From contig JADKKK010000003.1 in the NCBI GenBank assembly GCA_016720545.1, positions 537,516 through 601,515 of the forward strand: DNA of 64,000 nucleotides, given 5' to 3'. Positions 675 through 47,443 of this stretch are shown here, in pieces. The notes beneath the pieces were generated by a model. That model was not told the DNA's origin. It worked only from the letters and a program-made list of their open reading frames with translations, and did no database searches. Numbering within the stretch: the first letter of the stretch is position 1; every line of letters begins with the position of its first letter. This DNA is from Myxococcales bacterium (GTDB taxonomy: Bacteria; Myxococcota_A; Polyangia; Polyangiales; Polyangiaceae). Both the position numbers and the translations under genes were made by a program.

Positions 675-2246
675 ATGCTCTCGACCACCGGCCTCGCCTC
701 CTCCACCGACTCGAGCTCTGGCAGGGCCGGAGCGACCTATGGGCGCGGCGACGTGCTTCGCGCGGGGCCGCAGGCCTTCCGTGTGCTTCGCTGCCTGGGG
801 ATAGGCGCGATGGGCGAGGTCTACGAGGTCGAGGACCAGAACCTCGGCGTCACCCGAGTCGTCAAGCTGCTGCTCCCCGAGATCGCGCGCGCCCACGCCG
901 GGTTGGTCGACCGCTTCGTGCGCGAGGCGAAGGTGCTCGCGAAGCTGCAGCACCCGAACGTGGTGCGGGTGCTCCAGGCCGGGCGCCTCGACGAGGGCAC
1001 GCCGTTCTACATGATGGAGAAGGTCGAGGGCGTGAGCCTCGCGAGCTTCATCGCGAAGAAGGCGCCGCTCGCGCCGAGCGTGGTGATCCCGATCGTCGTC
1101 CAGCTCGCCGCCGGCCTCGAGGCGGTCCACGCGAGGGGCGTCGTGCACCGCGACGTGAAGCCCGACAACATCCTCATTTTCAAAGATCGCGGCGAACTTC
1201 GGGCGATCTTGCTCGATTTTGGCGTGATGAAGCTCGCGAGCGATCCCACGCCGGAGGGCTACTGCGGCACGCCGCTCTACTCGGCGCCCGAGCAGATCCT
1301 GGGAGAGCCCGTCGACGCGAAGATGGACGTGTTCGCGCTGGGGCTCGTGGCCTTCGAGATGCTCACGCGGAAGCGGGCGTACGAGGACTTCCCGAACCCG
1401 CTCCACCGCGTCACGGTGCCGGCGCCGCTCGTCTCGGACGTGGGCCCGCGCGTGAGCGACGCGCTGTCGCTCGTGCTGACCGACACGCTGTCGCTCGATC
1501 CTTCGAAGCGGCCCGCGGCCGACCTCTTGGCGAACCGCCTCCTCGAGTGCCCGGAGGCCACGGCGCGCTCGGCGCCGCTCAGCGACGTCGCCGCGATGAC
1601 CCAAGAAGAGCTGCTCGCGATCCCGCCGCTCTACGAGGCGCCCATCACCGTGGGCGAGCTCGACCAGCACACTGTGCCCGGCGGACCGCCACCGGAGGTC
1701 CTGGAGGCCGCGCGGCGGGCGCTCAACCCGACCCTCCGCGGACAGACGCACACCGGCGGATCGGCGGCGTTCAGCGACGACGTGGTCTACCAGACGGCGG
1801 CGAACGACGGCGGCGACACCTTCGACGTGATGGCGCACGCGATGAATATCGCGAAAGAAAAAGCGAGGTTACGCGCGGCCACCACGCGCACCGCGCTCCC
1901 CGGGCGCGCGCCCGAAGGCCCTGGCAACGCAGGCCCGGGCGGCACCGCCCGCATGAACGGCACGGCCCGCATGGGGAACCCCGACGTCCCGACCGGCCCC
2001 ACGGGCACCGCGCTGCTCGCCCCCGGTGCAGAGCGCGCCCCGTCCTCCGCGGGCTCGTCTCCGGGCGCCACCTCGGCGCCCGAGCCCGAACAGGTGGCGA
2101 GCGCGGTGGACGCGGCGCGAGAGGCCCATGACGCCGAGCGCCTCCAGAGCGCGGCCCAGCGGCGCACGATCGCGCTCGCGTGCGTGCTCGTCGTGCTTGG
2201 CGCCGGCTCCCTGATCGCGGCGCGCATGCTGGCAGATTCGCCATGA
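675..2246 (+). CDS. Hanks-type serine/threonine protein kinase with C-terminal transmembrane anchor
   Basis: Gly-loop/VAIK-like LGIGAMGEVYEV..VVKLL, catalytic loop HRDVKPDNILI, DFG motif DFGVMK, and APE (SAPEQ). A C-terminal hydrophobic segment TIALACVLVVLGAGSLIAA. Confidence 0.85.
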   Translation: MLSTTGLASSTDSSSGRAGATYGRGDVLRAGPQAFRVLRCLGIGAMGEVYEVEDQNLGVTRVVKLLLPEIARAHAGLVDRFVREAKVLAKLQHPNVVRVLQAGRLDEGTPFYMMEKVEGVSLASFIAKKAPLAPSVVIPIVVQLAAGLEAVHARGVVHRDVKPDNILIFKDRGELRAILLDFGVMKLASDPTPEGYCGTPLYSAPEQILGEPVDAKMDVFALGLVAFEMLTRKRAYEDFPNPLHRVTVPAPLVSDVGPRVSDALSLVLTDTLSLDPSKRPAADLLANRLLECPEATARSAPLSDVAAMTQEELLAIPPLYEAPITVGELDQHTVPGGPPPEVLEAARRALNPTLRGQTHTGGSAAFSDDVVYQTAANDGGDTFDVMAHAMNIAKEKARLRAATTRTALPGRAPEGPGNAGPGGTARMNGTARMGNPDVPTGPTGTALLAPGAERAPSSAGSSPGATSAPEPEQVASAVDAAREAHDAERLQSAAQRRTIALACVLVVLGAGSLIAARMLADSP

Positions 2247-3343
2247 GCAGCGGCGCGATGCCGCCGACCGCTTGTTTGCCGCCCGAAGCGCACTCTCCCG
2301 GGGTGGGGCAGGTCCTCCCTGGCACGAAGTATTTGCTCCTCTCGAAGCTGGGAGAGGGCGGCATGGGCGTGGTGTACGAGGTCCTGAAGCCGCCGGAGAT
2401 CGCCGGCGTGCTCAAGCGCATGAGCCTCGATCTCGCGCGGAGCAGCCGCGCCAAGGCGATGTTCCTCGCCGAGACGAGCATCCTCGCCCAGCTCGACCAC
2501 CCCAACATCGTGCGTGTGTACGACTTCGACGAGGACGCGTTCGGCGTGCCCTTCTTCGTGATGGAGCGCCTGATGGGGCGCACCGTGCGCGATCTGCTGC
2601 TGAGCCGGAGCCGCGTACGTCCCGCGGAGGCCTACGAGATCACGCGGCAGCTCCTGGAGGCGCTCCACGCAGCGCACACCCACGACACGCCCGTCGTGCA
2701 CCGCGACGTGAAGCCGGAGAACATCTTCCTTCACCAACCGAAGCACGGCGCCGCGGCGCTCAAGCTCATCGACTTCGGCATCGTCGCCGACGCTGGCGAG
2801 AAGGCCGGCGAGTTCGTCGGGACGATCGACTACGCCGCGCCCGAGCAGCTCTTCGGCCAGCGGGTCACGGCGAAGGCCGACCTCTACGCGGTGGCGTCGG
2901 TGCTCTACGAAATGTTGAGCGGGCGCCTCCCCTTTCCCGGCAAGACCCTCGCCGAGACCGGCGCGGCGAAGGGCCGCGGCGCGTTCCCGCCGCTGCGGAG
3001 CTTCGTGCCCGAGATCCCCGAGGCGGTGGCGGCGCTGGTCGCGCGGGCCCTCGCGAAGGACCCGGCGGCGCGCCCCGCGAGCGCGAGGCACTTCCGCGAT
3101 CTGCTCGACGCGGCGATCGCGACGGGCGACGGCCCGATCGCCACGAAGGTCCCCGCCTTCACGCGCCCAGGGCTCGAGGTCGAGCGCGAGGCGGCGGGGG
3201 CGCGGTCCGACGGCGCCGCCTACGCCCGCACGACCCTCGAAGAGCCCCAGGGAGGCCGCTTCTTCGCGCTGCTCCCATCGATCGCGGCCGGGGTCGTGGC
3301 CGGCGCGGCGCTGCTCGCCGCGCTCCACTGGACGCTGCGCTGA
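2243..3343 (+). CDS. Hanks-type serine/threonine protein kinase, paralogue of the upstream kinase, with C-terminal TM anchor
   Basis: GEGGMGVVYEV, HRDVKPENIFL, DFGIV and APEQ motifs. A C-terminal TM segment FFALLPSIAAGVVAGAALLAAL. The ATG at 2243 overlaps the upstream TGA (ATGA), so the two are translationally coupled. The track ORF 2180 is an N-terminal over-extension. Confidence 0.85.
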   Translation: MSSGAMPPTACLPPEAHSPGVGQVLPGTKYLLLSKLGEGGMGVVYEVLKPPEIAGVLKRMSLDLARSSRAKAMFLAETSILAQLDHPNIVRVYDFDEDAFGVPFFVMERLMGRTVRDLLLSRSRVRPAEAYEITRQLLEALHAAHTHDTPVVHRDVKPENIFLHQPKHGAAALKLIDFGIVADAGEKAGEFVGTIDYAAPEQLFGQRVTAKADLYAVASVLYEMLSGRLPFPGKTLAETGAAKGRGAFPPLRSFVPEIPEAVAALVARALAKDPAARPASARHFRDLLDAAIATGDGPIATKVPAFTRPGLEVEREAAGARSDGAAYARTTLEEPQGGRFFALLPSIAAGVVAGAALLAALHWTLR

Positions 3344-4130: not shown

Positions 4131-4278
4131 CTCCAAACTTGAACCACGGGGGGAGCGCGCACGGGGCGACGCTCGGGCAGAGTGGACTCTAGCTTGACGT
4201 GGCTGGGGTCAGAAGATTCTGACCAATCTCAACCCGTAGGACCCGGCGCCCACGTTGGCCCCGCGCATACGCCGGCCT

Positions 4279-4740
4279 TCAACCCCGGACGCGACCCGCC
4301 CACGGCTTGGCGCGGAGGTGGGCGACGAGCGCGCCGAGGTCGAGCTGCTCGACGGCCTCACCCTCGAAGATCACCGCGCCGCCGCCGGCAGCTTCGTCGA
4401 AGTGGCCTACCGCGACGACCTCCACGCCCGAGAGGCCGAGCCGCTCACCCTCGTGCAGGCAAATCAGGAGCGGGCGCGAGGCGGCGGTGGCGGCGCGGTC
4501 CACCACGGGTGGGCGGGTCGACCTGTGGCGCGCCCCGCAGCCCAAATCCAACACCGGGACGAGCGCGCCGGAGACCGCCGCGACGCCTACGAGGGGGAGT
4601 GTCCCACCGACGACCGGCGTCGTCTTGGGCATGGGCGCGAGCGCCTCGATGGACGCGACGCCAACGAAGGCGCGCACGTCCCCGTGGTCTCCGCGGTGCC
4701 GCACCACGACGCCACCCTGCCTCGCTCCCATGGAAGACAC
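4279..4740 (-). CDS. hypothetical protein (weak call)
   Basis: The 153-aa minus ORF has a protein-like composition (hydrophobic stretches, LICLHEGERLGLSGVEVVAVGHFDE). It sits in an otherwise unexplained 800-bp gap. The antisense plus-frame ORFs there are Arg-rich junk. Codon-position GC cannot separate the frames. Confidence 0.25.
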   Translation of the reverse strand: MSSMGARQGGVVVRHRGDHGDVRAFVGVASIEALAPMPKTTPVVGGTLPLVGVAAVSGALVPVLDLGCGARHRSTRPPVVDRAATAASRPLLICLHEGERLGLSGVEVVAVGHFDEAAGGGAVIFEGEAVEQLDLGALVAHLRAKPWAGRVRG

Positions 4741-4970
4741 GGTACCGCGAGTCGCCGCGCGCGCCCACGCGAAGGCGCTCGTCGCGCTCTACGGGGGCAC
4801 GGAGAACGCCGAATCCCAGGGGGTTTCAGAGGTTTCGGATCGCCTCGCGCGCTGGCTCTGCCCGCGCCACTGGCGCGCCAACCCGGGCCGCGCGAAATCG
4901 TCGGACCCGCGACTGGACCCGTGCTCTAGACTCAGCGCGCGATGCGCGAACCCGACCTCACGGGGGTGGC

Positions 4971-6338
4971 ATGAGCCGCTCCTCCACGACGCTCCCCGCG
5001 CGGGAGTCGGTGCTTGTCACTGGCGGCCGGGTCGTCACCTGCGATCCGGACGATCGCGTCGTCGACGGCGACGTCCTGATCGAGGACGGGCGCATCACCG
5101 CGATAGGCCCCGACGCCCTGTCGAAGCGCTCGCGCCCGGGCCTCGTTCGGGTGCTCGACGCCTCGGGCTGCGCCGTGCTCCCGGGCTTCGTGCAGCCGCA
5201 CATCCACCTCTGTCAGACGCTCTTCCGCGGCATGGCGGACGACCTGCCGCTCCTCGATTGGCTTCGCGAGCGCGTGTGGCCGCTCGAGGCCGCGCACGAC
5301 GAGCGCTCACTGGCCGCCAGCGCCGAGCTCGGCCTGCTCGAGCTCGTCCTCGGTGGGACGACGACCCTCCTCGACATGGGCACTGTGAGCGGCCACGACG
5401 CCGTGTTCGACGCGTGCGCGCGGAGCGGCCTCCGCGTGTTCTCGGGCAAGGCCATGATGGACTCCGGCGCGGGCGTGCCGAAGGGCCTCCGCGAGACGAC
5501 CCGCCGGAGCCTCGACGAGAGCGACGCGCTCTTCGCCCGCTGGGACGGCGCGGCGGAAGGGCGGCTCCGTTACGCCTACGCCCCGCGCTTCATTCTCTCG
5601 TGCACCGAGGGCCTCTTCCGGGGGGTGGTGGAGCGCGCGCGCGAGAACGGCGCGAAGCTCCACAGCCACGCGGCGGAGCACCCAGGGGAGCGCCGCGCCG
5701 TGCGCGAGCTGCTGGGACAGGACGACGTGGATGTGCTTGAATCTTATGGGTTTTGCGGCGAGAACACGCTCCTCGCCCACGGCGTCCAGCTCACGAAGGC
5801 GCAGGAGCGCCGCGCCGCCAAGCTGGGCACGCGCTTCATCCACTGCCCCAGCTCGAACCTGAAGCTCGGCTCCGGCATCGCGCGGGTGGCCGATCTGCTC
5901 GCGTCGGGAGTGAAGGTCGGGCTCGCCGCCGACGGCGCTCCCTGCACGAACAACCTCGACGCCTTCACCGAGCTCCGCCACGCCGCCCTGCTGGCCAAGA
6001 CACGCTCGGGCACGACCAGCCTCCCGGCGCGGCACGCGCTGCGCCTCGCGACCGTGCTCGGCGCGGAGGCCCTCGGCATCGCGGATCAGGTGGGCTCGCT
6101 GGAGCCCGGTAAGCGCGCCGATCTCCAGGTGGTGCGCGTCGACGGGCCCCACGTGGAGCCGGGCGGCGACGTGTTCTCTCGCCTCGTGTACGCGTGCCGC
6201 TCGAGCGACATCGTGCATGTGCTCGTCGACGGTCGCCTGCTCGTCAAGCTGGGCGAGTCGCGAGTGTACGACCGTGAGCGCGTGACCCGCGTCGCTCGCG
6301 TCCAGGGCGACGCGGTCCGCGCCAGAGCAGGCCTGTAG
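4971..6338 (+). CDS. amidohydrolase, MtaD/SAH-deaminase-like (metal-dependent hydrolase superfamily)
   Basis: MSRSSTTLPARESVLVTGGRVVTCD..DGRITAIG..LPGFVQPHIHLCQTLFRG is the HxH metal-binding start typical of MTA/SAH deaminase and guanine-deaminase-like enzymes. The track ORF 4182-6338 carries a 263-aa Arg-rich artefactual extension; the true ATG is at 4971. Confidence 0.8.
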   Translation: MSRSSTTLPARESVLVTGGRVVTCDPDDRVVDGDVLIEDGRITAIGPDALSKRSRPGLVRVLDASGCAVLPGFVQPHIHLCQTLFRGMADDLPLLDWLRERVWPLEAAHDERSLAASAELGLLELVLGGTTTLLDMGTVSGHDAVFDACARSGLRVFSGKAMMDSGAGVPKGLRETTRRSLDESDALFARWDGAAEGRLRYAYAPRFILSCTEGLFRGVVERARENGAKLHSHAAEHPGERRAVRELLGQDDVDVLESYGFCGENTLLAHGVQLTKAQERRAAKLGTRFIHCPSSNLKLGSGIARVADLLASGVKVGLAADGAPCTNNLDAFTELRHAALLAKTRSGTTSLPARHALRLATVLGAEALGIADQVGSLEPGKRADLQVVRVDGPHVEPGGDVFSRLVYACRSSDIVHVLVDGRLLVKLGESRVYDRERVTRVARVQGDAVRARAGL

Positions 6339-6359: not shown

Positions 6360-9218
6360 CTACTCGCCGTCGTGCGAGGCCTGGGCCTCGGTGGCCTCGA
6401 TCTGCGCGAGGACCACGGCGAGCGCGTCTTTCGCGCGGTCGAGCGACGCGCGGTCCGCGTCCCACTTGCTGGCCGCCGCGCGCGCACGCTCGCGCTCCTT
6501 GGAGAGATCGAGCTCGACGGCCGCGAGGCGCGCCAGGGTCGACTCGTGCGACGCCTGCAGGGCCGTGTAGAGCCCGTCGAGCGCGAGGCCGTGCCGGCGC
6601 GCGACCTCGAGCTCGGCGAACACCCCGTCGCGCTCGCGCGCGCGTTCGGCGACGGACTGCTCGAGCGTGGCCGCGCGCCGCGTCTCGGCGTCGAGGCTGG
6701 CCCGCGTCTCGCCGAGCACCCCCTCGAGGAAGGCCACGCGAGAGGTGAGGTCGGCGTTGAGCGACGCGAGCGCGTCGTGCCGCGCGTGGGCCTCGCCGAG
6801 CGCCTCGACGCCGGCCGCGCGCGCCGTCTGCGCGGCCTGGAGCTCCTCGCGGGTGGCCGCGTGCCCGGTCTGCTCAACACGGAGATCTTCGCGGGTGGTC
6901 GCGAGCGAGGTCTGCTCGGCGCGCAGCTCCTCGCGGGTGGTCGCGAGCGAGGTCTGCTCAGCGCGGAGCTGCTCGCGGGTGCTCCCGAGCGAGGCCGCGA
7001 GCCCCTCGAGCTGCTCGGTGAGCTCGGCGCGCGTGTCCTGAAGCGCGGCCTGCTCCCGCGCGAGCGCGCTCGCCGTGTCGTCCCGCGCGGTCGCGAGGTC
7101 GCGGGCGGTTGCCGTGAGGCGCGCGACGTCCTCGGCGTGGGCGGCCTCCGCGACGGCCACGGCCTCGCCGTGGGCGGCTTCGGCGCGGGCCAAAGCCTCC
7201 GCGCGGGCGGCCTCCGCGACGGCCAAGGCCTCGGCGTGGGCGGCTTCGGCGCGGGCCAACGCCTCGGCGTGGCCGGCCTCGGCGCGGGCCAACGCCTCGG
7301 CGCCCGCGGCCTGGCGCTCGGCGAGCGACCGCCCGAGTACGTCCTCGAACATCGCCTCGAGGGAGGCGGCCTGCTCGGTCAGCGCGGCGTCGCGCTCGGC
7401 TTCCTTCTCGACGATCGTCCTCGCGACGTCGGCGGCGGCTTCCCGGCGCGCGGCCTCGAGCTCCGCCACGCGGCGGCCCTCGGCTTGGGCGAGCGCGGTC
7501 TCGTGCGCAGCCTGCGCCTGGAGAGCGGCCGCGGTGGCGGCGTCGATGCGCGCGTCGCGCTCCGCGATCCATGTGTCGCGCACCACGGTGTCGTTCGTGC
7601 GTTCGGCGAGGCGCAGCTCGCGGTCGACCAGCATCGTGTTGAGGGTCTGGATGGCCTCTTCGCGATCGACCAGGGCCCGGCTTCGCTCGGCGATCGTCGC
7701 GTCCCGCTCGGCGATCGTGCCGTCCCGCTCGGCCAGCAAGGCCTCGAGGGAAGTCCGCCGGGTGTCGCCCTCCGCCATCCTGGCGTCGCGTTCCCTGAGG
7801 CTCGCCTCGACCGACGCGTGGGAGGCACGAAGCTCGTTGAGCACCGCCTCCCGGTCCGCGAGCGTCGCCGTCTGCTCCAGCAGGTGGGCGCGCAGCGAGC
7901 CGACGGCGGCGTCGCGCTCGGCGATGGTCGCCTCCGCGGTGGCGAGCGAGCTACGCGCGGCGTCCGCGAGGCGCTTCGCCTCGTCGAGCTCCCACTGCGC
8001 GGTCTGCGCGCTCTCCCGGGCGTCCGAGAGCTCGCGCTCTTTCGCGATCACCCTGTCTTCGAGATCCGCGCTCGCGCGCTCCACGGCGAGGGAGCGATCC
8101 CGGGACTCGGTGATCTCGTGATCTTTCGCGGAGAGATGCTCTCTAAGTGATAGTATCTCCTTGTCTTTTCGGTTCAGTGCCTCGCGCAGATCGAGGAACT
8201 CGCGGCTCGTCGCGGGTGCGACGGCTCGCTGCGGCGCGGCGTTGATGCGACGGCGGAGCTCTTCGACTTCTCGCTGGAGGGCAGCGACCTCGGCGGCCCG
8301 GGGATCGACCGCGGCCATCACCAGCGTCGGGTACACGGGCGGCGGCTGCGAGGCGGCGACGGGGCTGGGCGCTCCAGGAGGTGGCGCGGTCTCGACGAGC
8401 GAGGCCGAGGGCGCGGGAGGTGGCGCGGCGGTGCGCGTCGGGACGGCGGGGCGGTCGAGCTCGTCGAACGCGGGGGGCGGGGCGGGTGGGCGGCCGGTCT
8501 GCGCGATGCGCTCGCGCGCCTCGCCCCGGCCGGGGTCCGGCACGGCGACGGTGTCTGGATTGTCGCTGCCGCTCGGGACCACGACGCTGCTCGGCGGCGA
8601 CGCGCCGTAGGGGACCGGCATGCCTGGCGTCGTCACGGGGCGGGCGGAGAGGGGGTTCTCGCGGTGGCCGGGGATCTCGACGGTCTTGTCGATCGCGTCG
8701 TAGGCGGGCGGGGGCACGGCCAGGGTGATCTCCCCCGAGCCGTGCCTCAGGAGCGGGCGGGCGGCGACCGTGATCTCCCCCTCACTGCTGAGATCGTCGT
8801 CCTGGACGTCGATCGACACGTCGTACGAGTCGTCGCGCGAGTCGCCGAAGTCGACGAAGGTCTCGATGCGTCGGATGAGGGAGTCGACGGCGATAGGCTT
8901 GTGGACGTACTCCTCCGCCCGCGTGCGGAGCTTGCGGTGCTGCTCGAAGGTCTCCTCGCTCGACTCGCTCGAGAGGATGACCAGGGGCACCTCCCGAAAG
9001 ACCATGTCCTTCTTCAGCTTGTTGCAGACCGAGAACCCGTTCATGCGGGGCAGCTCGATCGCCAGGAGGATGAGGTCGGGCTTGAGCTGCGACGCGAGCA
9101 TGAGCCCCGCGTTGCCGTCCTCGACGATCTGAACCGCGCAGCCTTTCGCTTCCAAACCAGCGCGAAGCGCCGCCGCGAAGGCGGGGTCGCCCTCGAACAC
9201 TAGGACGTTGAGGGGCAT
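6360..9218 (-). CDS. pseudo-receiver domain + Pro-rich linker + long coiled-coil protein (FrzS/AglZ-like)
   Basis: N-terminal CheY-like receiver (LVFEGDP...KPDLILLAIELPRMNG...LVILSSESSE...VHKPIAVD) with the phospho-acceptor Asp replaced by Ala (LLAIELP). Then a PAPPPA-rich region and ~600 aa of heptad-rich Ala/Glu/Arg/Leu sequence with internal repeats (AEALARAEAAH.., TREELRAEQTSLATT x2). Confidence 0.8.
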   Translation of the reverse strand: MPLNVLVFEGDPAFAAALRAGLEAKGCAVQIVEDGNAGLMLASQLKPDLILLAIELPRMNGFSVCNKLKKDMVFREVPLVILSSESSEETFEQHRKLRTRAEEYVHKPIAVDSLIRRIETFVDFGDSRDDSYDVSIDVQDDDLSSEGEITVAARPLLRHGSGEITLAVPPPAYDAIDKTVEIPGHRENPLSARPVTTPGMPVPYGASPPSSVVVPSGSDNPDTVAVPDPGRGEARERIAQTGRPPAPPPAFDELDRPAVPTRTAAPPPAPSASLVETAPPPGAPSPVAASQPPPVYPTLVMAAVDPRAAEVAALQREVEELRRRINAAPQRAVAPATSREFLDLREALNRKDKEILSLREHLSAKDHEITESRDRSLAVERASADLEDRVIAKERELSDARESAQTAQWELDEAKRLADAARSSLATAEATIAERDAAVGSLRAHLLEQTATLADREAVLNELRASHASVEASLRERDARMAEGDTRRTSLEALLAERDGTIAERDATIAERSRALVDREEAIQTLNTMLVDRELRLAERTNDTVVRDTWIAERDARIDAATAAALQAQAAHETALAQAEGRRVAELEAARREAAADVARTIVEKEAERDAALTEQAASLEAMFEDVLGRSLAERQAAGAEALARAEAGHAEALARAEAAHAEALAVAEAARAEALARAEAAHGEAVAVAEAAHAEDVARLTATARDLATARDDTASALAREQAALQDTRAELTEQLEGLAASLGSTREQLRAEQTSLATTREELRAEQTSLATTREDLRVEQTGHAATREELQAAQTARAAGVEALGEAHARHDALASLNADLTSRVAFLEGVLGETRASLDAETRRAATLEQSVAERARERDGVFAELEVARRHGLALDGLYTALQASHESTLARLAAVELDLSKERERARAAASKWDADRASLDRAKDALAVVLAQIEATEAQASHDGE
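6840..7340. repeat. intragenic tandem repeats (~42-bp and ~48-bp units) inside the coiled-coil gene
   Basis: cgcgggtggtcgcgagcgaggtctgctcggcgcgcagctcct repeated ~3x at 6880-7010. gcctccgcgacggccaNggcctcgScgtgggcggcttcggcgcgggccaa repeated ~3x at 7141-7320. These encode the coiled-coil repeats. Confidence 0.7.
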
Positions 9219-9347
9219 GGCGTCTCAACGATACGAGGGCCCCAGAAGCAGTGTCAAACCCGGTCTTCTCGAGACCAGGGCGGCCACGACATTCCGCGAG
9301 GGCGACGACTTCCGCGCAGCCTCGCGGGTTTTCTGCGATGGTGCGCC

Positions 9348-10292
9348 GTGGCCCGTGAGACGCTCGCCTTCGCGACCCCTCGAAAGCTCCCGCGGGCGAA
9401 GGACCTCGAGGGCCGCGTCGCCGTGCTCGACGTGGCCTTCGCGTCGGAGGCCTCGGGCGGCGGCTTCGACAAGATCACCCTCCCGCTGATCGAGGGCCTG
9501 GGCACCCGCCTCGCGGCCTGGATCGATCACCACGACCACGTCCTGCACGGGCGCTACGCCGCGGATCCGCGCTTCGTGCTCGCGACCAAAGCGCAGCACG
9601 GCGCCTGCCCCGAGATGCTGAGCCCCGAGCGGGTGCGCCGGCTCGGCCCGGTCGACACGATCGTGTGCCACACCGACTTCGACGGGCTCGCGAGCGCGGC
9701 GAAGTGGATGCTCGGCGGCGAGGAGCCGTACCCCGGCTGCGACGACGACGCGCGGGCCATCGACACGCGCATCGGCGCGCCGAGCCCCATCGCCGCGCGA
9801 GTCGACCGGGCCCTCCGCGCGCGTGGGCGCGATCCGGCGCTGTTCGGCGCCGTCGTGCGCCTGTTGGTCTCGCGCCTCGCCGACGCCGCGCTCTGGGAGC
9901 CCATCGACCGCGCGGGCGCGGAGCTCGTCGTCATCGAGCGGGCCACGCGCCGAATCGCGGAGGGCTACGCGCGCGTCGAGCTGCGCAAGTGCCCCTTCCC
10001 CCGCGTCACCACGCTCGCCTACCTCGACGCGACCGGCGCGACCGCGCGCGGCGAACGCTACGACCGCACTCAGCTCTTGCTGCTCGGCCAGGAGCGCGCG
10101 AGCGTCGCGTTGCTCGTCGACCGCGACAACCTCACGCTCGCCGCGCCGTTCGACAGCGGGGTTAACTTCCTGAAACTACTAGGTCTTTCCGGCGGGATGC
10201 CGACCCTCGTCTCCGTGCCCAAGGCGCGCCTCGGTGAGGCGCTGGCGGGGCTCGGCGTGGGCGCCGACGACGCCTCCCGCCTCGTCGGCTGA
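9348..10292 (+). CDS. hypothetical protein with DHH-phosphoesterase-like motifs
   Basis: GTG-initiated 314-aa ORF. Motifs AWIDHHDH and CHTDFDGLASAAKW resemble DHH-family motifs, but the order is atypical. No confident family assignment. Confidence 0.5.
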   Translation: MARETLAFATPRKLPRAKDLEGRVAVLDVAFASEASGGGFDKITLPLIEGLGTRLAAWIDHHDHVLHGRYAADPRFVLATKAQHGACPEMLSPERVRRLGPVDTIVCHTDFDGLASAAKWMLGGEEPYPGCDDDARAIDTRIGAPSPIAARVDRALRARGRDPALFGAVVRLLVSRLADAALWEPIDRAGAELVVIERATRRIAEGYARVELRKCPFPRVTTLAYLDATGATARGERYDRTQLLLLGQERASVALLVDRDNLTLAAPFDSGVNFLKLLGLSGGMPTLVSVPKARLGEALAGLGVGADDASRLVG

Positions 10293-17584: not shown

Positions 17585-19084
17585 GTGGAAGACCTCCCCG
17601 ACACCGCCTACCGACGCACCCTCGATCGCTACGCGCTCTACGGCGAGATCGCGGCCGGGGGGATGGCGCGCGTCCATTTCGGGCGAGTGCTCGGCGCGCA
17701 GAGCGTGCCGCGCGTGGTCGCCATCAAGTGCCTCCTGCCCGAGCTCGCGGTCGACCCCACCTTCGTCCGCATGTTCCTCGCCGAGGGCCGGCTCGCGTCG
17801 CGCGTTCGGCACCCGAACGTCGTCGCGACCCACGACGTCGTGTCGCTGCCCGCCGGCGCGGAGGGCTCGCCCGGCCAGCTCTTCCACGTCATGGAGTACG
17901 TGGCGGGTGACTCGCTGTCGCGGCTGGTGCGCAAGTCGCGCGAGCGCGGCGTCCCGGTGCCACCGCGCGTCGCGGTGAGCGTCGCGTGTGGCCTGCTCGA
18001 GGGGCTGCACGCGGCCCACGAGGCGAAGAGCGAGACCGGCGAGCCGCTCGGCCTCGTGCACCGCGACGTCTCGCCGCAGAACGTGATGGTCGGCGTCGAT
18101 GGCCTCGCGCGCGTGCTCGACTTCGGCGTCGCCACGGCGACCCACCTCGTGGACGAGGCGCCCGACCAGATCAAGGGCAAGGTCGGCTACATGGCGCCCG
18201 AGCAGCTCGCGCACGAGGGGGTCGATCGGCGGACCGACCTGTACGCCGCCGCCGTGGTGCTGTGGGAGACGCTCACGGGTCGACGCCTCTTCAAGGCCGA
18301 CAACCTCTCCGCCCTCATCGTGAAGGTGATGGCCGATCCGGTGGAGGTACCCAGCACCTACGCAGACGGAATCCCTAGCGATATCGACATGATACTCATG
18401 AAGGCGCTCTCGCGCGACGTGCGCGATCGGTGGACGACCGCGCGCGAGCTCGCGGTGTTGCTGGAGGGCGCGCTGCCGCCGGCGCCGGCGCGCGACGTGG
18501 GCGCGTGGGTCGAGGAGGTCGGCGGAGACCGCCTGCGGTACCGGGCCGAGGTCGTCGCGGCGATCGAGGCGCAGTCGATCGCCCACCTGAAGGTGCCGAG
18601 CGCGGCGCGCTCGCTCGGGCGCATCACGGTCGAGAGCGCGAGCTCCGATCTGACCGGCCTCGACGCGGACGCGCTGCCGGGCGCCGTCGAGCAGGCGCTC
18701 GCCAGCGATCCGCAGATCAAGGCCGTCATGCTGCGCCGCTCGCAGCCGCTCTTCGGGGCCGAGCCGTCGACGTCCAGGCTCCCTCAGCTTCAGGCCGGGC
18801 GCGCGAATCCCTGCGCGCCGGAGCGCGGGCAAGAGCCGCCGCCCGGGGCGCAAGCGACTCTTGGGGCCGCGCCCGTCGCGCCCGTCGCGCCCGTCGCGCC
18901 CGCGCCGTTCGCGCCGGTCGTGGACACCCCCGCTCCGACCCCACCGCGACCGCAGCCCGCGCGCGCTGCCAAGCGTGGCCTGAGCAGCGGCGCGCGCTCG
19001 GCGCTCCTCGCCCTCGGGGTGCTCGTGCTCATCGTGTGCGCGGCCTACGCGGGGCTCACCCTCGGCAGGATCGATCCGCCGTAG
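17585..19084 (+). CDS. Hanks-type serine/threonine protein kinase with C-terminal TM anchor
   Basis: GEIAAGGMARVHFG..VAIKCL, HRDVSPQNVMV, DFGVA and APEQ motifs. A Pro/Ala-rich linker, then a TM segment ALLALGVLVLIVCAAYAGL. GTG start. Confidence 0.85.
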   Translation: MEDLPDTAYRRTLDRYALYGEIAAGGMARVHFGRVLGAQSVPRVVAIKCLLPELAVDPTFVRMFLAEGRLASRVRHPNVVATHDVVSLPAGAEGSPGQLFHVMEYVAGDSLSRLVRKSRERGVPVPPRVAVSVACGLLEGLHAAHEAKSETGEPLGLVHRDVSPQNVMVGVDGLARVLDFGVATATHLVDEAPDQIKGKVGYMAPEQLAHEGVDRRTDLYAAAVVLWETLTGRRLFKADNLSALIVKVMADPVEVPSTYADGIPSDIDMILMKALSRDVRDRWTTARELAVLLEGALPPAPARDVGAWVEEVGGDRLRYRAEVVAAIEAQSIAHLKVPSAARSLGRITVESASSDLTGLDADALPGAVEQALASDPQIKAVMLRRSQPLFGAEPSTSRLPQLQAGRANPCAPERGQEPPPGAQATLGAAPVAPVAPVAPAPFAPVVDTPAPTPPRPQPARAAKRGLSSGARSALLALGVLVLIVCAAYAGLTLGRIDPP

Positions 19085-43269: not shown

Positions 43270-44046
43270 TTGACCACCACCCAGCTGCGGATAGAAGTCG
43301 CCGGCGAGACCAACGTCGGCATGAAGCGTCAGCACAACGAGGACAACTTCTCGATCCTCGAGGAAGCTGGGCTCTACATCGTCGCCGACGGGATGGGCGG
43401 CCACGCCTCCGGCGAGGTGGCAAGCCAGATGGCGGTCGACGCGCTGAAGGACTTCTTCATCTCGACCTCGGAGGACCCCGAGCGAACCTGGCCCTACAAG
43501 ATGGACCGGTCGCGCGGGTACGAGGAGAACCGCCTCATCACGGGCATCAAGCTCGCGAACCTGCGCATCTACGAGAGCGCCCAGCGCGACGCGCGGCAGC
43601 GCGGCATGGGCACCACGATCGTGGTGCTCTTCGCCGTCGAAGACGGGGTGTACTGCGCCCACGTCGGCGACTCCCGCGGGTACCGCATCCGCGACGGCAA
43701 GATCGAGCAGCTCACCGACGACCACTCTCTCTTGAACGACTACATCAAGATGAAGCGGCTCACGGCGGAGGAAATCGCGAATTTTCCGCACAAAAACGTG
43801 ATCGTGCGCGCGCTCGGCATGAAGGACACCGTCAAGGTGGACACCCGCTTCGAGGCGTCGCGCGCCGACGACGTCTACGTGCTCTGCTCCGACGGCCTGT
43901 CGGGCCCGGTCACCGACGAGGAGCTCCTCGAGATCGTTCAGGGCGCCCCCGACCTGAAGCAGGCGGCGTCGCAGCTCATTCAGCGGGCCAACGAGAACGG
44001 CGGCCCCGACAACATCACCGTCATCCTCGCGCGATGGGTGAGTTGA
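43270..44046 (+). CDS. PP2C-family serine/threonine protein phosphatase
   Basis: Metal-binding motifs of bacterial PPM/Stp: ETNVGMKRQHNEDNF...YIVADGMGGHASGEVAS...CSDGLS. Confidence 0.85.
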   Translation: MTTTQLRIEVAGETNVGMKRQHNEDNFSILEEAGLYIVADGMGGHASGEVASQMAVDALKDFFISTSEDPERTWPYKMDRSRGYEENRLITGIKLANLRIYESAQRDARQRGMGTTIVVLFAVEDGVYCAHVGDSRGYRIRDGKIEQLTDDHSLLNDYIKMKRLTAEEIANFPHKNVIVRALGMKDTVKVDTRFEASRADDVYVLCSDGLSGPVTDEELLEIVQGAPDLKQAASQLIQRANENGGPDNITVILARWVS

Positions 44047-45218: not shown

Positions 45219-47189
45219 CTAGGGTTCGACGGGTGCCGCGGGCTTGGGCGCTGGCTCGACAGGCTTGGGCGCCGGCTCGGCGGGCTTGGGCTCGACCGGC
45301 TTGGGCTCGGCGGGCTTGGGCTCGACCGGCTTGGGCTCGACCGGCTTGGGCGCCGCGGTCTCCGCGGGCTTCGGCTCCGCGGGCTTCGGCTCGGCGGGCT
45401 CGGCGGGCTTCGGCTCCGCGGGCTTCGGCTCGACGGGCGCGGCGGGCTTCGGCTCGGCGGGCTTGGGCGCGACAGGCGCGACCGCAGGCTTCGGCGCGAC
45501 AGGCGCCGAAGGTGCGACGACCGGGACGGCCGCGGACGCCGCGGCGCTCGCGGGTGCTGCAGGGGCCGCGTCGACGGCGGGAGCCGCGTCCTCTCCGGTC
45601 GCAGCGCTGGCGCTGGCGGAGGGTGCAGCAGCCGCCGAGGGCGCCTCGGACGGGGCGGCGGACGGCAGGGGCGCGACGCTCGCCGAGGTCGCCGGGGGCG
45701 CCCCGCCGAACAGGTGCGCCTTGTAGGCGAAGATGCCACCGCCGGCGAGGAGCGCGACCGCGACGACGGCCCCGATGAGCGCCCCACCCCCGCGCTTCTT
45801 GGGCTCCGGGAGCGGCATCACCTGCTGGCCCGCGCTGGCCATCGCGAGCTCGGCGACCGGCGGGGGCGCGGGGGTCGAGGCCATCTGCAGGGGCACGACC
45901 TGCGACGCGCGAGGCTCCGCAGGCTCGTACGCGGGCACGGCGGGCGCTGCGCCCGGGAGCGACGCCCGCTCGGCAGGCTCCGCGCCACGGATGGACGCGA
46001 GGAGGTCGTCGGTGCCGCCGAGCGACGGCGCCGGTCCGCTCGGGAGGCCGCCCGCCACCGTGTACAGCGGGTTGGCCTGCACCTCGTCCATGGAGCCGCC
46101 GGCCTCGCGGAGGGCCTCCTCGAGGAGCTCGGCGGCCTGCTTCATCACCGTGGGCTCGGCGCGCTCGAGGGCGTTCTGCGGCTTGCGCGGGCCATCCACC
46201 GGGAACATCGGCTTGGCCGAAACCGGCGGATCGTCTGGGAAGAGCTTCGACCGATCGAGCGGCAGGGTCGATGCGAAGTCGGTGCCCACGATGGGGCGCG
46301 TGGCCTCGAGCTCGCGCAGCTCTGCTTTCTTGGCGGCCTCGGCCGCGGCGAAATCGGGGAGCGCATCGCGGCTCAGCGGCAGGGTGGACGAGAACCCTTG
46401 GGATTCGTCAGGTCCCGCCTTCGGCAGCGCGATCATCGTGGGCGGATCGGGGTCGAACGGCGACGGGTACCCGACGGGCTCGCGCTCACGCGGCTGCTCC
46501 AGGTTGGCGAAGAACTCGTCGTCGGAGGAGCCAGGGGTGTCGGTGCCGAACGTGAGCGCGCCGAAGGGCTGCGTGGGCGCGGCCACGGGGACGGGCATCT
46601 CGGAGGTCTTGTTGAGTTGGGACGCGAGCCCGAGCGGCACTCCAGCCCGACGCCGCGACTCGACCGGTGCCTCGTCGGCCGGTGGAGGCGGAGGCGGCAG
46701 CGGCTCGGCCGCGGGGCTGGGATCCCAGGGGACCGTGCCTTTCAGGGCGGCGCGCGCGGGGGGAGGTGCGGGGGTGACCGCGCGCGGCGGCGGCGCGGAA
46801 GGCTTCGGCAAGGGCGCGGCGGCCGTCGGCTCGGCCGGCGGGGCGGCCAGCGCGGCGGTCACGAGGCGATCGATGGTCTGCCGCGAGACATCGTCGATCT
46901 TGATGAACTTGACGCCCATGCCAGCGGGGCGCTCCGCCGCGGCCTGGGTCGGCTCGCGCTTCCACACGACCCGCCCGACACCCGTGAGGGAGGACGACTC
47001 GCCCGCGACGATGATCTCGAGCTTCAGGAGGGTGCCCGGAGCGAAAGGGGTCTGGGTCTTGACGAACACCCCACCGACGCTGACGTCGAGCGACTGGTTG
47101 TCGATGAACTCGTCGTTGGTCGCGCTCTTGTACCGGACCGTGAGGCCGGGGACGCGCGCGCGCTTGTCCTTACGCGTATCGGAGGTCAT
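45219..47189 (-). CDS. PilZ-domain protein with long Pro/Ala-rich low-complexity region, TM segment and PAEPK-repeat tail
   Basis: N-terminal PilZ signature RKDKRARV...DVSVGGVF. TM segment ALIGAVVAVALLAGGGIFAY. C-terminal (PKPAEPKPVEP)n repeats encoded by 15-bp DNA repeats at 45230-45480. The start is trimmed to the ATG at 47189. Confidence 0.7.
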   Translation of the reverse strand: MTSDTRKDKRARVPGLTVRYKSATNDEFIDNQSLDVSVGGVFVKTQTPFAPGTLLKLEIIVAGESSSLTGVGRVVWKREPTQAAAERPAGMGVKFIKIDDVSRQTIDRLVTAALAAPPAEPTAAAPLPKPSAPPPRAVTPAPPPARAALKGTVPWDPSPAAEPLPPPPPPADEAPVESRRRAGVPLGLASQLNKTSEMPVPVAAPTQPFGALTFGTDTPGSSDDEFFANLEQPREREPVGYPSPFDPDPPTMIALPKAGPDESQGFSSTLPLSRDALPDFAAAEAAKKAELRELEATRPIVGTDFASTLPLDRSKLFPDDPPVSAKPMFPVDGPRKPQNALERAEPTVMKQAAELLEEALREAGGSMDEVQANPLYTVAGGLPSGPAPSLGGTDDLLASIRGAEPAERASLPGAAPAVPAYEPAEPRASQVVPLQMASTPAPPPVAELAMASAGQQVMPLPEPKKRGGGALIGAVVAVALLAGGGIFAYKAHLFGGAPPATSASVAPLPSAAPSEAPSAAAAPSASASAATGEDAAPAVDAAPAAPASAAASAAVPVVAPSAPVAPKPAVAPVAPKPAEPKPAAPVEPKPAEPKPAEPAEPKPAEPKPAETAAPKPVEPKPVEPKPAEPKPVEPKPAEPAPKPVEPAPKPAAPVEP

Positions 47190-47443
47190 GGACGAGGGAT
47201 CTCCAGCCACAGGAGGCGAGGGGGCGAGAAGGGAACCGAGTGGAGCCATGCTACCCGACCTTCGACAAAAAGAGCCAACTCCTGCGCGGGCGAGTTGGCG
47301 ACAGAAGGTGCGACGAGGGGCGCGGGCCCAATCACCGCGGGCACGCGCCCGAACGCACCGAGCCCACACACCTGCGACGGCGAACCAGAACGCCCACCAG
47401 GAAAGGGACCGCGGGGTGCCGACCGTGATAGGCTCGTCGGCGC

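Follow-up and report, generated by a model that had tools for sequence, protein, structure and literature searches.

A FrzS-like pseudo-receiver protein with a long, repeat-built helical rod from a Polyangiaceae genome

We analysed a stretch of 64,000 nucleotides from a Myxococcales bacterium of the family Polyangiaceae (assembly GCA_016720545.1, contig JADKKK010000003.1, positions 537,516 to 601,515; hereafter the window). It contains, at 6360..9218 on the reverse strand (stop codon included), a gene for a FrzS-family protein of 952 amino acids (aa). The gene is an ordinary, though long, member of a family that has already been described, including representatives from the Sorangiineae. We consider it probable that the product is an undivided Polyangiaceae FrzS-like scaffold with a docking function at the cell pole. 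We regard the open reading frame (ORF) as a real gene because of its GC content at third codon positions (GC3, 0.92, matching the level of the real genes in this 72% GC window), a conserved orthologue (L001 below) and synteny, and these same observations exclude a spurious ORF of the kind found in GC-rich DNA. The gene, the domain layout and the repeats that the original prediction, made by reading the DNA without database searches, had placed here were all found.

The protein begins with a receiver domain (aa 1-125), which is followed by a disordered, proline-rich linker (aa 126-305) and then by about 610 aa of almost unbroken helix. Response_reg was the sole significant Pfam domain (aa 5-118, E=5e-17), and many NCBIfam models of response regulators matched in their receiver portions only, each scoring far under its cut-off. 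Two Pfam coiled-coil matches, CCDC113 and DUF1664, were below threshold and were dismissed as compositional.

The receiver domain (8844..9218, reverse strand) ties the protein to FrzS in both sequence and fold. Among all PDB sequences, phmmer placed the receiver of Myxococcus xanthus FrzS (2gkg) closest, at E=1e-23, and the next unrelated receiver, RpaA, scored 20 bits lower. The AlphaFold2 (AF2) model, whose input was an alignment of 33 sequences without L001, shows a (beta/alpha)5 receiver fold with predicted local distance difference test (pLDDT) values of 83-90. When this model was compared with the PDB by Foldseek, the top structure was again the FrzS receiver (2i6f, template modeling score 0.84, root mean square deviation 2.0). 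The fold is intact, as had been proposed.

Alignment with CheY, PhoB and FrzS places Ala53 (codon at 9060..9062, reverse strand), within LLAIELP, at the position of the phospho-acceptor Asp (CheY D57, PhoB D53), and FrzS likewise has A53. The register chosen by eye in the original prediction was right, and so were its Ser at beta4 (S83, for CheY T87) and its conserved Lys (K107, for CheY K109); CheY Y106 is matched by Y104. Its reading of EGD as an intact acidic pocket failed: E9 corresponds to CheY D12, and the position of the Mg-binding D13 is occupied by G10, with D11 one residue beyond. The ESD of FrzS is arranged in the same way, with Ser at the D13 position. The N-terminal domain has kept the receiver fold and cannot be phosphorylated at the canonical site, since it has A53 for the acceptor Asp and G10 for the second Mg-binding Asp. 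These losses extend to its relatives. Of the 120 best homologues, 107 have Ser at position 53, 7 have Ala and 6 could not be scored, leaving Asp in none of the 114 scored; at the acceptor position the FrzS-type representatives carry A, S, G or E, and at the D13 position both they and the Polyangiaceae clade have G or S throughout. Two other residues are invariant in all 50 sequences compared, H94 and Y104, whose FrzS equivalents H92 and Y102 are essential (PMC9811614, PMC1974792). FrzS binds neither Mg2+ nor BeF3, and its D55 is dispensable (PMC1974792).

The similarity to FrzS does not end with the receiver. A word-indexed search of 5.8 billion proteins with the FrzS receiver as query returned fragments of at most 216 aa and no full-length FrzS. 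The FrzS side of our comparisons consists of a FrzS-like protein reconstructed from a frameshifted Myxococcaceae contig (L010), whose neighbours, about 6 kb away, include CheW and receiver (response-regulator) genes, and of intact FrzS-type representatives of 500-650 aa, returned by HMMER in an exhaustive search that started from a FrzS-like fragment. With tblastn, the window protein matched the L010 locus in the receiver and, separately, in a KDKEIL motif (E=7e-5). With hhalign, the Polyangiaceae family matched the L010 reconstruction with a probability of 99.85% (E=1.6e-30, 398 columns) and the FrzS-type proteins with a probability of 100% (E=1.7e-53, 349 columns), the latter match spanning the receiver, an acidic linker motif (D-x-D-x-x-x-AF) and the KDKEIL motif. 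The last 90 residues alone matched the FrzS-type C termini at 94.7% (E=5.6e-8). By these sequence comparisons the protein is homologous to FrzS from end to end, with only the middle of the rod unalignable.

The two ends of the rod carry the clearest of these shared features. At its start lies a conserved motif, TSREFLDLREALNRKDKEILSLRE (aa 337-360; 8139..8210, reverse strand), with invariant columns from S338 to L356 in a 34-sequence family alignment; it aligns with KDTFTLRDAVNKKDKEILRLK of FrzS both by tblastn (E=7e-5) and by hhalign, and its core, LREALNKKDKEIL, is conserved and shared with the FrzS-type proteins. At its end lies a conserved C-terminal cap, AASKWDADRASLDRAKDALAVVLAQIEATEA (aa 915-945; 6384..6476, reverse strand), with invariant columns from K918 to I940 in the same alignment. 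We therefore describe the rod as flanked by two family-conserved motifs, KDKEIL at the start and RxKxAL...E at the C terminus, criteria that we derived in the present analysis. The likeness to M. xanthus FrzS (MXAN_4149; 2gkg, 2i6f) thus covers the order of pseudo-receiver, acidic or proline-rich linker, coiled coil and cap; the Ala at the phospho-acceptor position and the degenerate acidic pair (E-S/G-D); the equivalents of H92, Y102 and K107; the alpha3 helix (NGxxxCxKLKKD) and the alpha4-beta5 region (FxQHxKLxTRAxxYV); and, in the rod, the KDKEIL motif and the cap (xRxKxALxxAxQxxE). Receiver sequence and fold, the profile match, the cap and the layout all bear out the proposed FrzS/AglZ-like character.

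The protein belongs to a large clade of the Polyangiaceae. A search of 5.8 billion proteins gave 552 homologues at E<=1e-5, and the named ones were all from Polyangiaceae metagenome-assembled genomes (MAGs). Within the segment that aligns locally they share 32-70% identity with the query, and about 40% when at least half of the query is aligned. They are 523-962 aa long (median 731), with the window protein at the long end. Across the clade the receiver core is near-invariant and the rod centre varies in length between an invariant start (S-x-x-F-L-D-L-R-E-x-L-N-x-K-D-K) and an invariant cap (K-W-x-x-D-R-x-S-L-x-R-A-K-D-A-L-A-V-x-L-A-Q-I-E). In the set of species-representative genomes there was one orthologue, L001, from a Polyangiaceae MAG; it is 920 aa long, has the same flanking genes and A53 too, and is 78% identical overall and 97% identical in the receiver.

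Where this clade stands relative to FrzS and AglZ can be read from the study by Guzzo and colleagues of 2015, in which the two M. xanthus proteins are paralogues produced by a duplication in the ancestor of the Cystobacterineae, relatives of that suborder have a single copy nearer to FrzS, and no FrzS/AglZ member has a functional phosphorylation site (PMC4546325). Their table lists a homologue of 1099 aa in Sorangium cellulosum, with the receiver at 12-133 and the coiled coil at 390-1097, and one of 737 aa in Plesiocystis (PMC4546325). The Polyangiaceae source of the window and this history imply that the window protein is an undivided FrzS-like form of the Polyangiaceae (Sorangiineae), from a lineage predating the FrzS/AglZ duplication, a placement for which we rely on the 2015 study. 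We have therefore not filed it as a strict FrzS or a strict AglZ. Its lineage lies outside the Cystobacterineae, within which the split occurred (PMC4546325), so it is probably no strict orthologue of FrzS; we place it in the FrzS/AglZ family as a whole. The single homologue of S. cellulosum So ce56, compared by its published description (PMC4546325), comes from the same suborder and is laid out in the same way, with a linker that is also long and with 600-700 aa of coiled coil; it is the only FrzS-like copy there and lacks a phosphorylation site. It has 1099 aa against the 952 of the window protein, whose nearest available relative is L001, at 78%.

The linker and the rod are best described from the AF2 model and the composition. 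The linker (aa 126-305; 8304..8843, reverse strand) is acidic, contains 20% proline and is predicted to be disordered, with pLDDT below 50 and no secondary structure. The rod (aa 307-948; 6375..8300, reverse strand) is modelled as helices at 307-326, 338-534, 546-759 and 777-948, i.e., a helix from aa 338 to 948 that is only twice, and briefly, interrupted (535-545 and 760-776). Its composition (25% Ala, 13% Glu, 12% Arg and 11% Leu, with no proline beyond aa 335) agrees with a long helix. A long helical rod is clear in the model, and very probably it supercoils. Of the roughly 600 aa of repeat-rich coiled coil announced in the original prediction, the helix of about 610 aa and its repeats are found by AF2 and Tandem Repeats Finder (TRF); the coiled coil itself we infer, with a heptad signal that is moderate.

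The centre of the rod is built from tandem repeats, which TRF scored at 210-276, far beyond chance expectation. A 14-aa (42-bp) array at 6813..6994 (reverse strand) has 4.3 copies of TTREELRAEQTSLA (period 42, score 210). An 11-aa (33-bp) array at 7107..7317 (reverse strand) has about 5.7 copies of HAEALARAEAA, and TRF reports it at 7130-7317 with periods of 33, 66 and 99 (scores 236-276), the 22-aa (66-bp) higher order being stronger than the 33-bp one. Three heptads (LLAERDG/TIAERDA/TIAERSR) form a 21-bp repeat at 7677..7739 (reverse strand; TRF 7684-7733, period 21, 2.4 copies). Of the units of 42 and 48 bp proposed earlier, the former is real and the latter was not found by TRF on the gene, which gave the 33/66-bp and 21-bp units as the others. 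Nor are the copies near-perfect, as had been claimed: the copies of the 42-bp unit, and likewise the first five 33-bp units, share 73-94% pairwise DNA identity, a degenerate sixth 33-bp unit has 58-64% identity to the others, and 90% is the value both for the duplicate pair TREELRAEQTSLA and for units 1 and 2 of the 42-bp array.

The number of copies varies among close relatives, in line with the proposed recent expansion and variable length. Compared with the window protein, L001 has 35 aa (2.5 units) fewer in the 14-mer array, one heptad fewer and a difference of 7 residues beside the 11-mer array. At a finer scale, two contigs of metagenome Ga0073904 (L011 and L012) have 99.1-99.6% DNA identity to the window, and therefore this sample contains the organism of the window or a strain very near to it. 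Contig L012 has exactly one 33-bp unit fewer and is about 99.7% identical elsewhere; L011 terminates within the 21-bp array. This pattern may be what recent slippage or recombination produces. Both contigs break in or near the repeats of the gene, which disrupt short-read assembly. Across the sequences compared, arrays of period 11 were the commonest true repeat, with 35 such arrays, many of them of the ERDRDERIAxL type, whereas the repeats of the FrzS-type representatives are mainly of 7 and 14 residues. P0016, P0033, P0037, P0044, P0100 and others have 11-residue arrays of their own (e.g., ALERARDERIA and SHASELANAQS) at about the same point along the rod. That many members have their own arrays suggests independent and repeated expansion of hendecads within the family. 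The rod centre looks like a length-tolerant spacer between conserved ends.

What such a protein may do is best considered from M. xanthus FrzS. There, the coiled coil alone suffices for polar localisation. The pseudo-receiver serves for docking: with its alpha3-beta4-alpha4 face it binds SgmX, a TPR protein, after unmasking by MglA-GTP, and in this way the activator of type IV pili reaches the pole (PMC9811614). We compared the consensus sequences of the Polyangiaceae and FrzS-type receivers element by element. They are identical at 6/10 positions in alpha3, 5/9 in alpha4, 4/6 in the alpha4-beta5 loop and 3/4 in beta5, against 4/13 in alpha1, 1/11 in alpha2 and 1/8 in alpha5. Since the conserved surface coincides with the face by which FrzS binds its partner, a docking role is supported. 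By analogy, the rod would dimerise or self-assemble and set the protein at the cell poles, and the pseudo-receiver would be a docking module independent of phosphorylation, its alpha3-beta4-alpha4 face recruiting, under the direction of the GTPase MglA, a TPR-type, SgmX-like activator of type IV pili. The repeat-built centre could then act as a length-tolerant spacer, in which slippage or unequal recombination would alter the length and keep the function. The window protein would thus be a polar scaffold for type IV pili.

Several observations speak against this reading. The 64-kb window contains no frz, pil, mgl, sgmX or che genes, and the linkage to a frz operon that marks a strict FrzS is lacking: the gene, unlike frzS, stands away from any such operon. 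Neither the window nor L001 has, at the corresponding position, the PatA/CheW chemosensory cluster that adjoins the gene in some relatives (L024 and L025, see below). The receiver differs from that of FrzS in having Ser at the T87 position (Gly in FrzS) and an insertion of 3 residues in the beta4-alpha4 loop, and the residues that contact SgmX in FrzS, G88 and A97-H98, have become T90 and T99-R100. A crude Fourier test for periodicities of 3.5 and 3.67 residues in this Ala-rich rod gave only moderate z-scores (up to 5), which were weak over aa 533-700. Finally, the loss of one unit in contig L012 could also reflect the collapse of repeats during short-read assembly.

The altered SgmX contacts, together with S83 and the loop insertion, raise the possibility of a related but different partner. 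Taken further, they could make the Polyangiaceae branch a functionally distinct variant, with hendecad arrays changing on the timescale of strains, a polar spacer of tunable length that is in part non-heptad, and a remodelled beta4-alpha4 junction docking a partner other than SgmX; we find this unlikely. As it stands, the protein is only mildly unusual, in its hendecad-rich, copy-number-variable rod and its remodelled beta4-alpha4 junction, and in nothing else. A wider departure from FrzS would be a general polar or cytoskeletal scaffold apart from motility, serving cell shape, division or chromosome organisation, with the pseudo-receiver docking some other partner. The lack of motility genes nearby would fit, as would the unusual junction and the conserved neighbours, which are an amidohydrolase and an uncharacterised protein of 314 aa. 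Hendecad-rich rods are also reminiscent of cytoskeletal proteins of the Scy/FilP type, whose long rods mix heptad and hendecad periodicity and which have a polar scaffold role; unlike the window protein, these have no receiver domain, show no detectable sequence homology to it and belong to another phylum. Against a general scaffold we count the end-to-end homology to FrzS, the retention of the equivalents of H92 and Y102, and the chemosensory cluster beside the gene in some relatives, and we give this explanation a low probability.

The rod length invites a comparison with the other paralogue. A protein acting like AglZ would be a long coiled-coil pseudo-receiver that binds MglA-GTP and regulates a gliding motor of the Agl-Glt type, not type IV pili. 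The Polyangiaceae are gliding bacteria, and the rod of about 610 aa far exceeds that of FrzS (235 aa; 562 aa for the whole protein against 952 here), being intermediate between FrzS and AglZ (1076 aa). M. xanthus AglZ (MXAN_2991), a paralogue of FrzS, shares with the window protein the pseudo-receiver and a very long coiled coil (PMC4546325). By its description, AglZ is unlike the window protein in its coiled coil of about 1076 aa, its origin in a duplication specific to the Cystobacterineae and its work with the Agl-Glt gliding motor, and the rod falls short of the more than 1000 aa by which we would recognise an AglZ. Among the best 150 matches to an FrzS-like receiver in a set of 1.8 billion representatives, there was no protein of AglZ length with a single N-terminal receiver. 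An AglZ-like action is in our view improbable. The last alternative is a true, phosphorylatable response regulator with a non-canonical acceptor, either D11 or E55 or, in the relatives, Ser53 as target of a Ser/Thr kinase. E9, D11, S83 and K107 are kept, Ser is the usual residue 53 in the clade, and there are Ser/Thr kinase genes at 675-3343 and 17585-19084. But the window protein itself has Ala53 and a Gly at the Mg ligand equivalent to D13, and FrzS, with the same active-site losses, binds neither Mg2+ nor BeF3 and can do without D55 (PMC1974792). We regard this as very improbable.

The main value of recognising a FrzS-like scaffold lies in annotation. Databases call the members of this clade just "response regulator" or "CheY-like", yet they are probably what the Sorangiineae have as their form of the polar scaffold FrzS. 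The clade marks a place to look for the regulation of polarity and pili in myxobacteria with almost no motility genetics. Moreover, its proteins of 523-962 aa with conserved ends are a natural series of rod lengths, which could help to test how the FrzS coiled coil finds the pole, a question left by the 2022 FrzS paper.

The surroundings of the gene give some further indications. It is convergent with an amidohydrolase gene (4983-6338, forward strand) and divergent from the gene of the 314-aa protein (9348-10292, forward strand), and both neighbours are conserved in L001, L024 and L025. In L024 (11641-13499) and L025, genes for a PatA_N-type response regulator and a 131-aa CheW-like protein stand just past the amidohydrolase, one gene from the FrzS-like gene. 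In L025 (12094-16605) these are followed by genes for a methyl-accepting chemotaxis protein and a CheA (Hpt-HATPase), and then by one for a large TPR protein. The layout resembles chemosensory clusters of the Pix/Pil-Chp type that serve pili and recalls the linkage of frzS and frz in Myxococcus. The 314-aa protein has no Pfam or NCBIfam match. It keeps its position and, in the distant members L024 and L025, 65% identity; its DHHDH and HTDFDG motifs loosely resemble those of DHH phosphoesterases. It may work together with the FrzS-like protein or be no more than a neighbour by synteny. As for the amidohydrolase, the mechanical ORF (4182-6338, forward strand) is about 270 codons too long upstream, and the likely start is at about 4983 (MSRSSTTLPARE...). 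The excess is an artefact of high GC content and would make an automatic gene call too long.

Upstream of the FrzS-like gene, a consensus scan found a promoter-like site, TTGACA-18-TATCGT (9228..9257, reverse strand; 1 site against 0.0 expected). Its -10 element ends 9 nt ahead of the ATG (9218), there is no evident Shine-Dalgarno sequence, and the block is identical in L001, whose sequence farther upstream diverges and has a 22-nt indel. These features point to a transcript with no leader or next to none.

The rest of the window holds an M20 peptidase gene in the neighbourhood, a GAF-HD protein, succinate dehydrogenase genes and metabolic genes. The three Ser/Thr kinase genes (675-3343 and 17585-19084, both on the forward strand) and a PP2C phosphatase gene (43270-44046) are typical for myxobacterial genomes; the kinase ORFs 675-2246 and 2180-3343 overlap as called. 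At 45219-47369 on the reverse strand lies the gene of a 716-aa PilZ-domain protein of the myxobacterial paralogue family TIGR02266 (score 71 bits, cut-off 68.7). No other gene in the window is a candidate for a relation to cyclic di-GMP or to pili, and this one is 36 kb from the FrzS-like gene.

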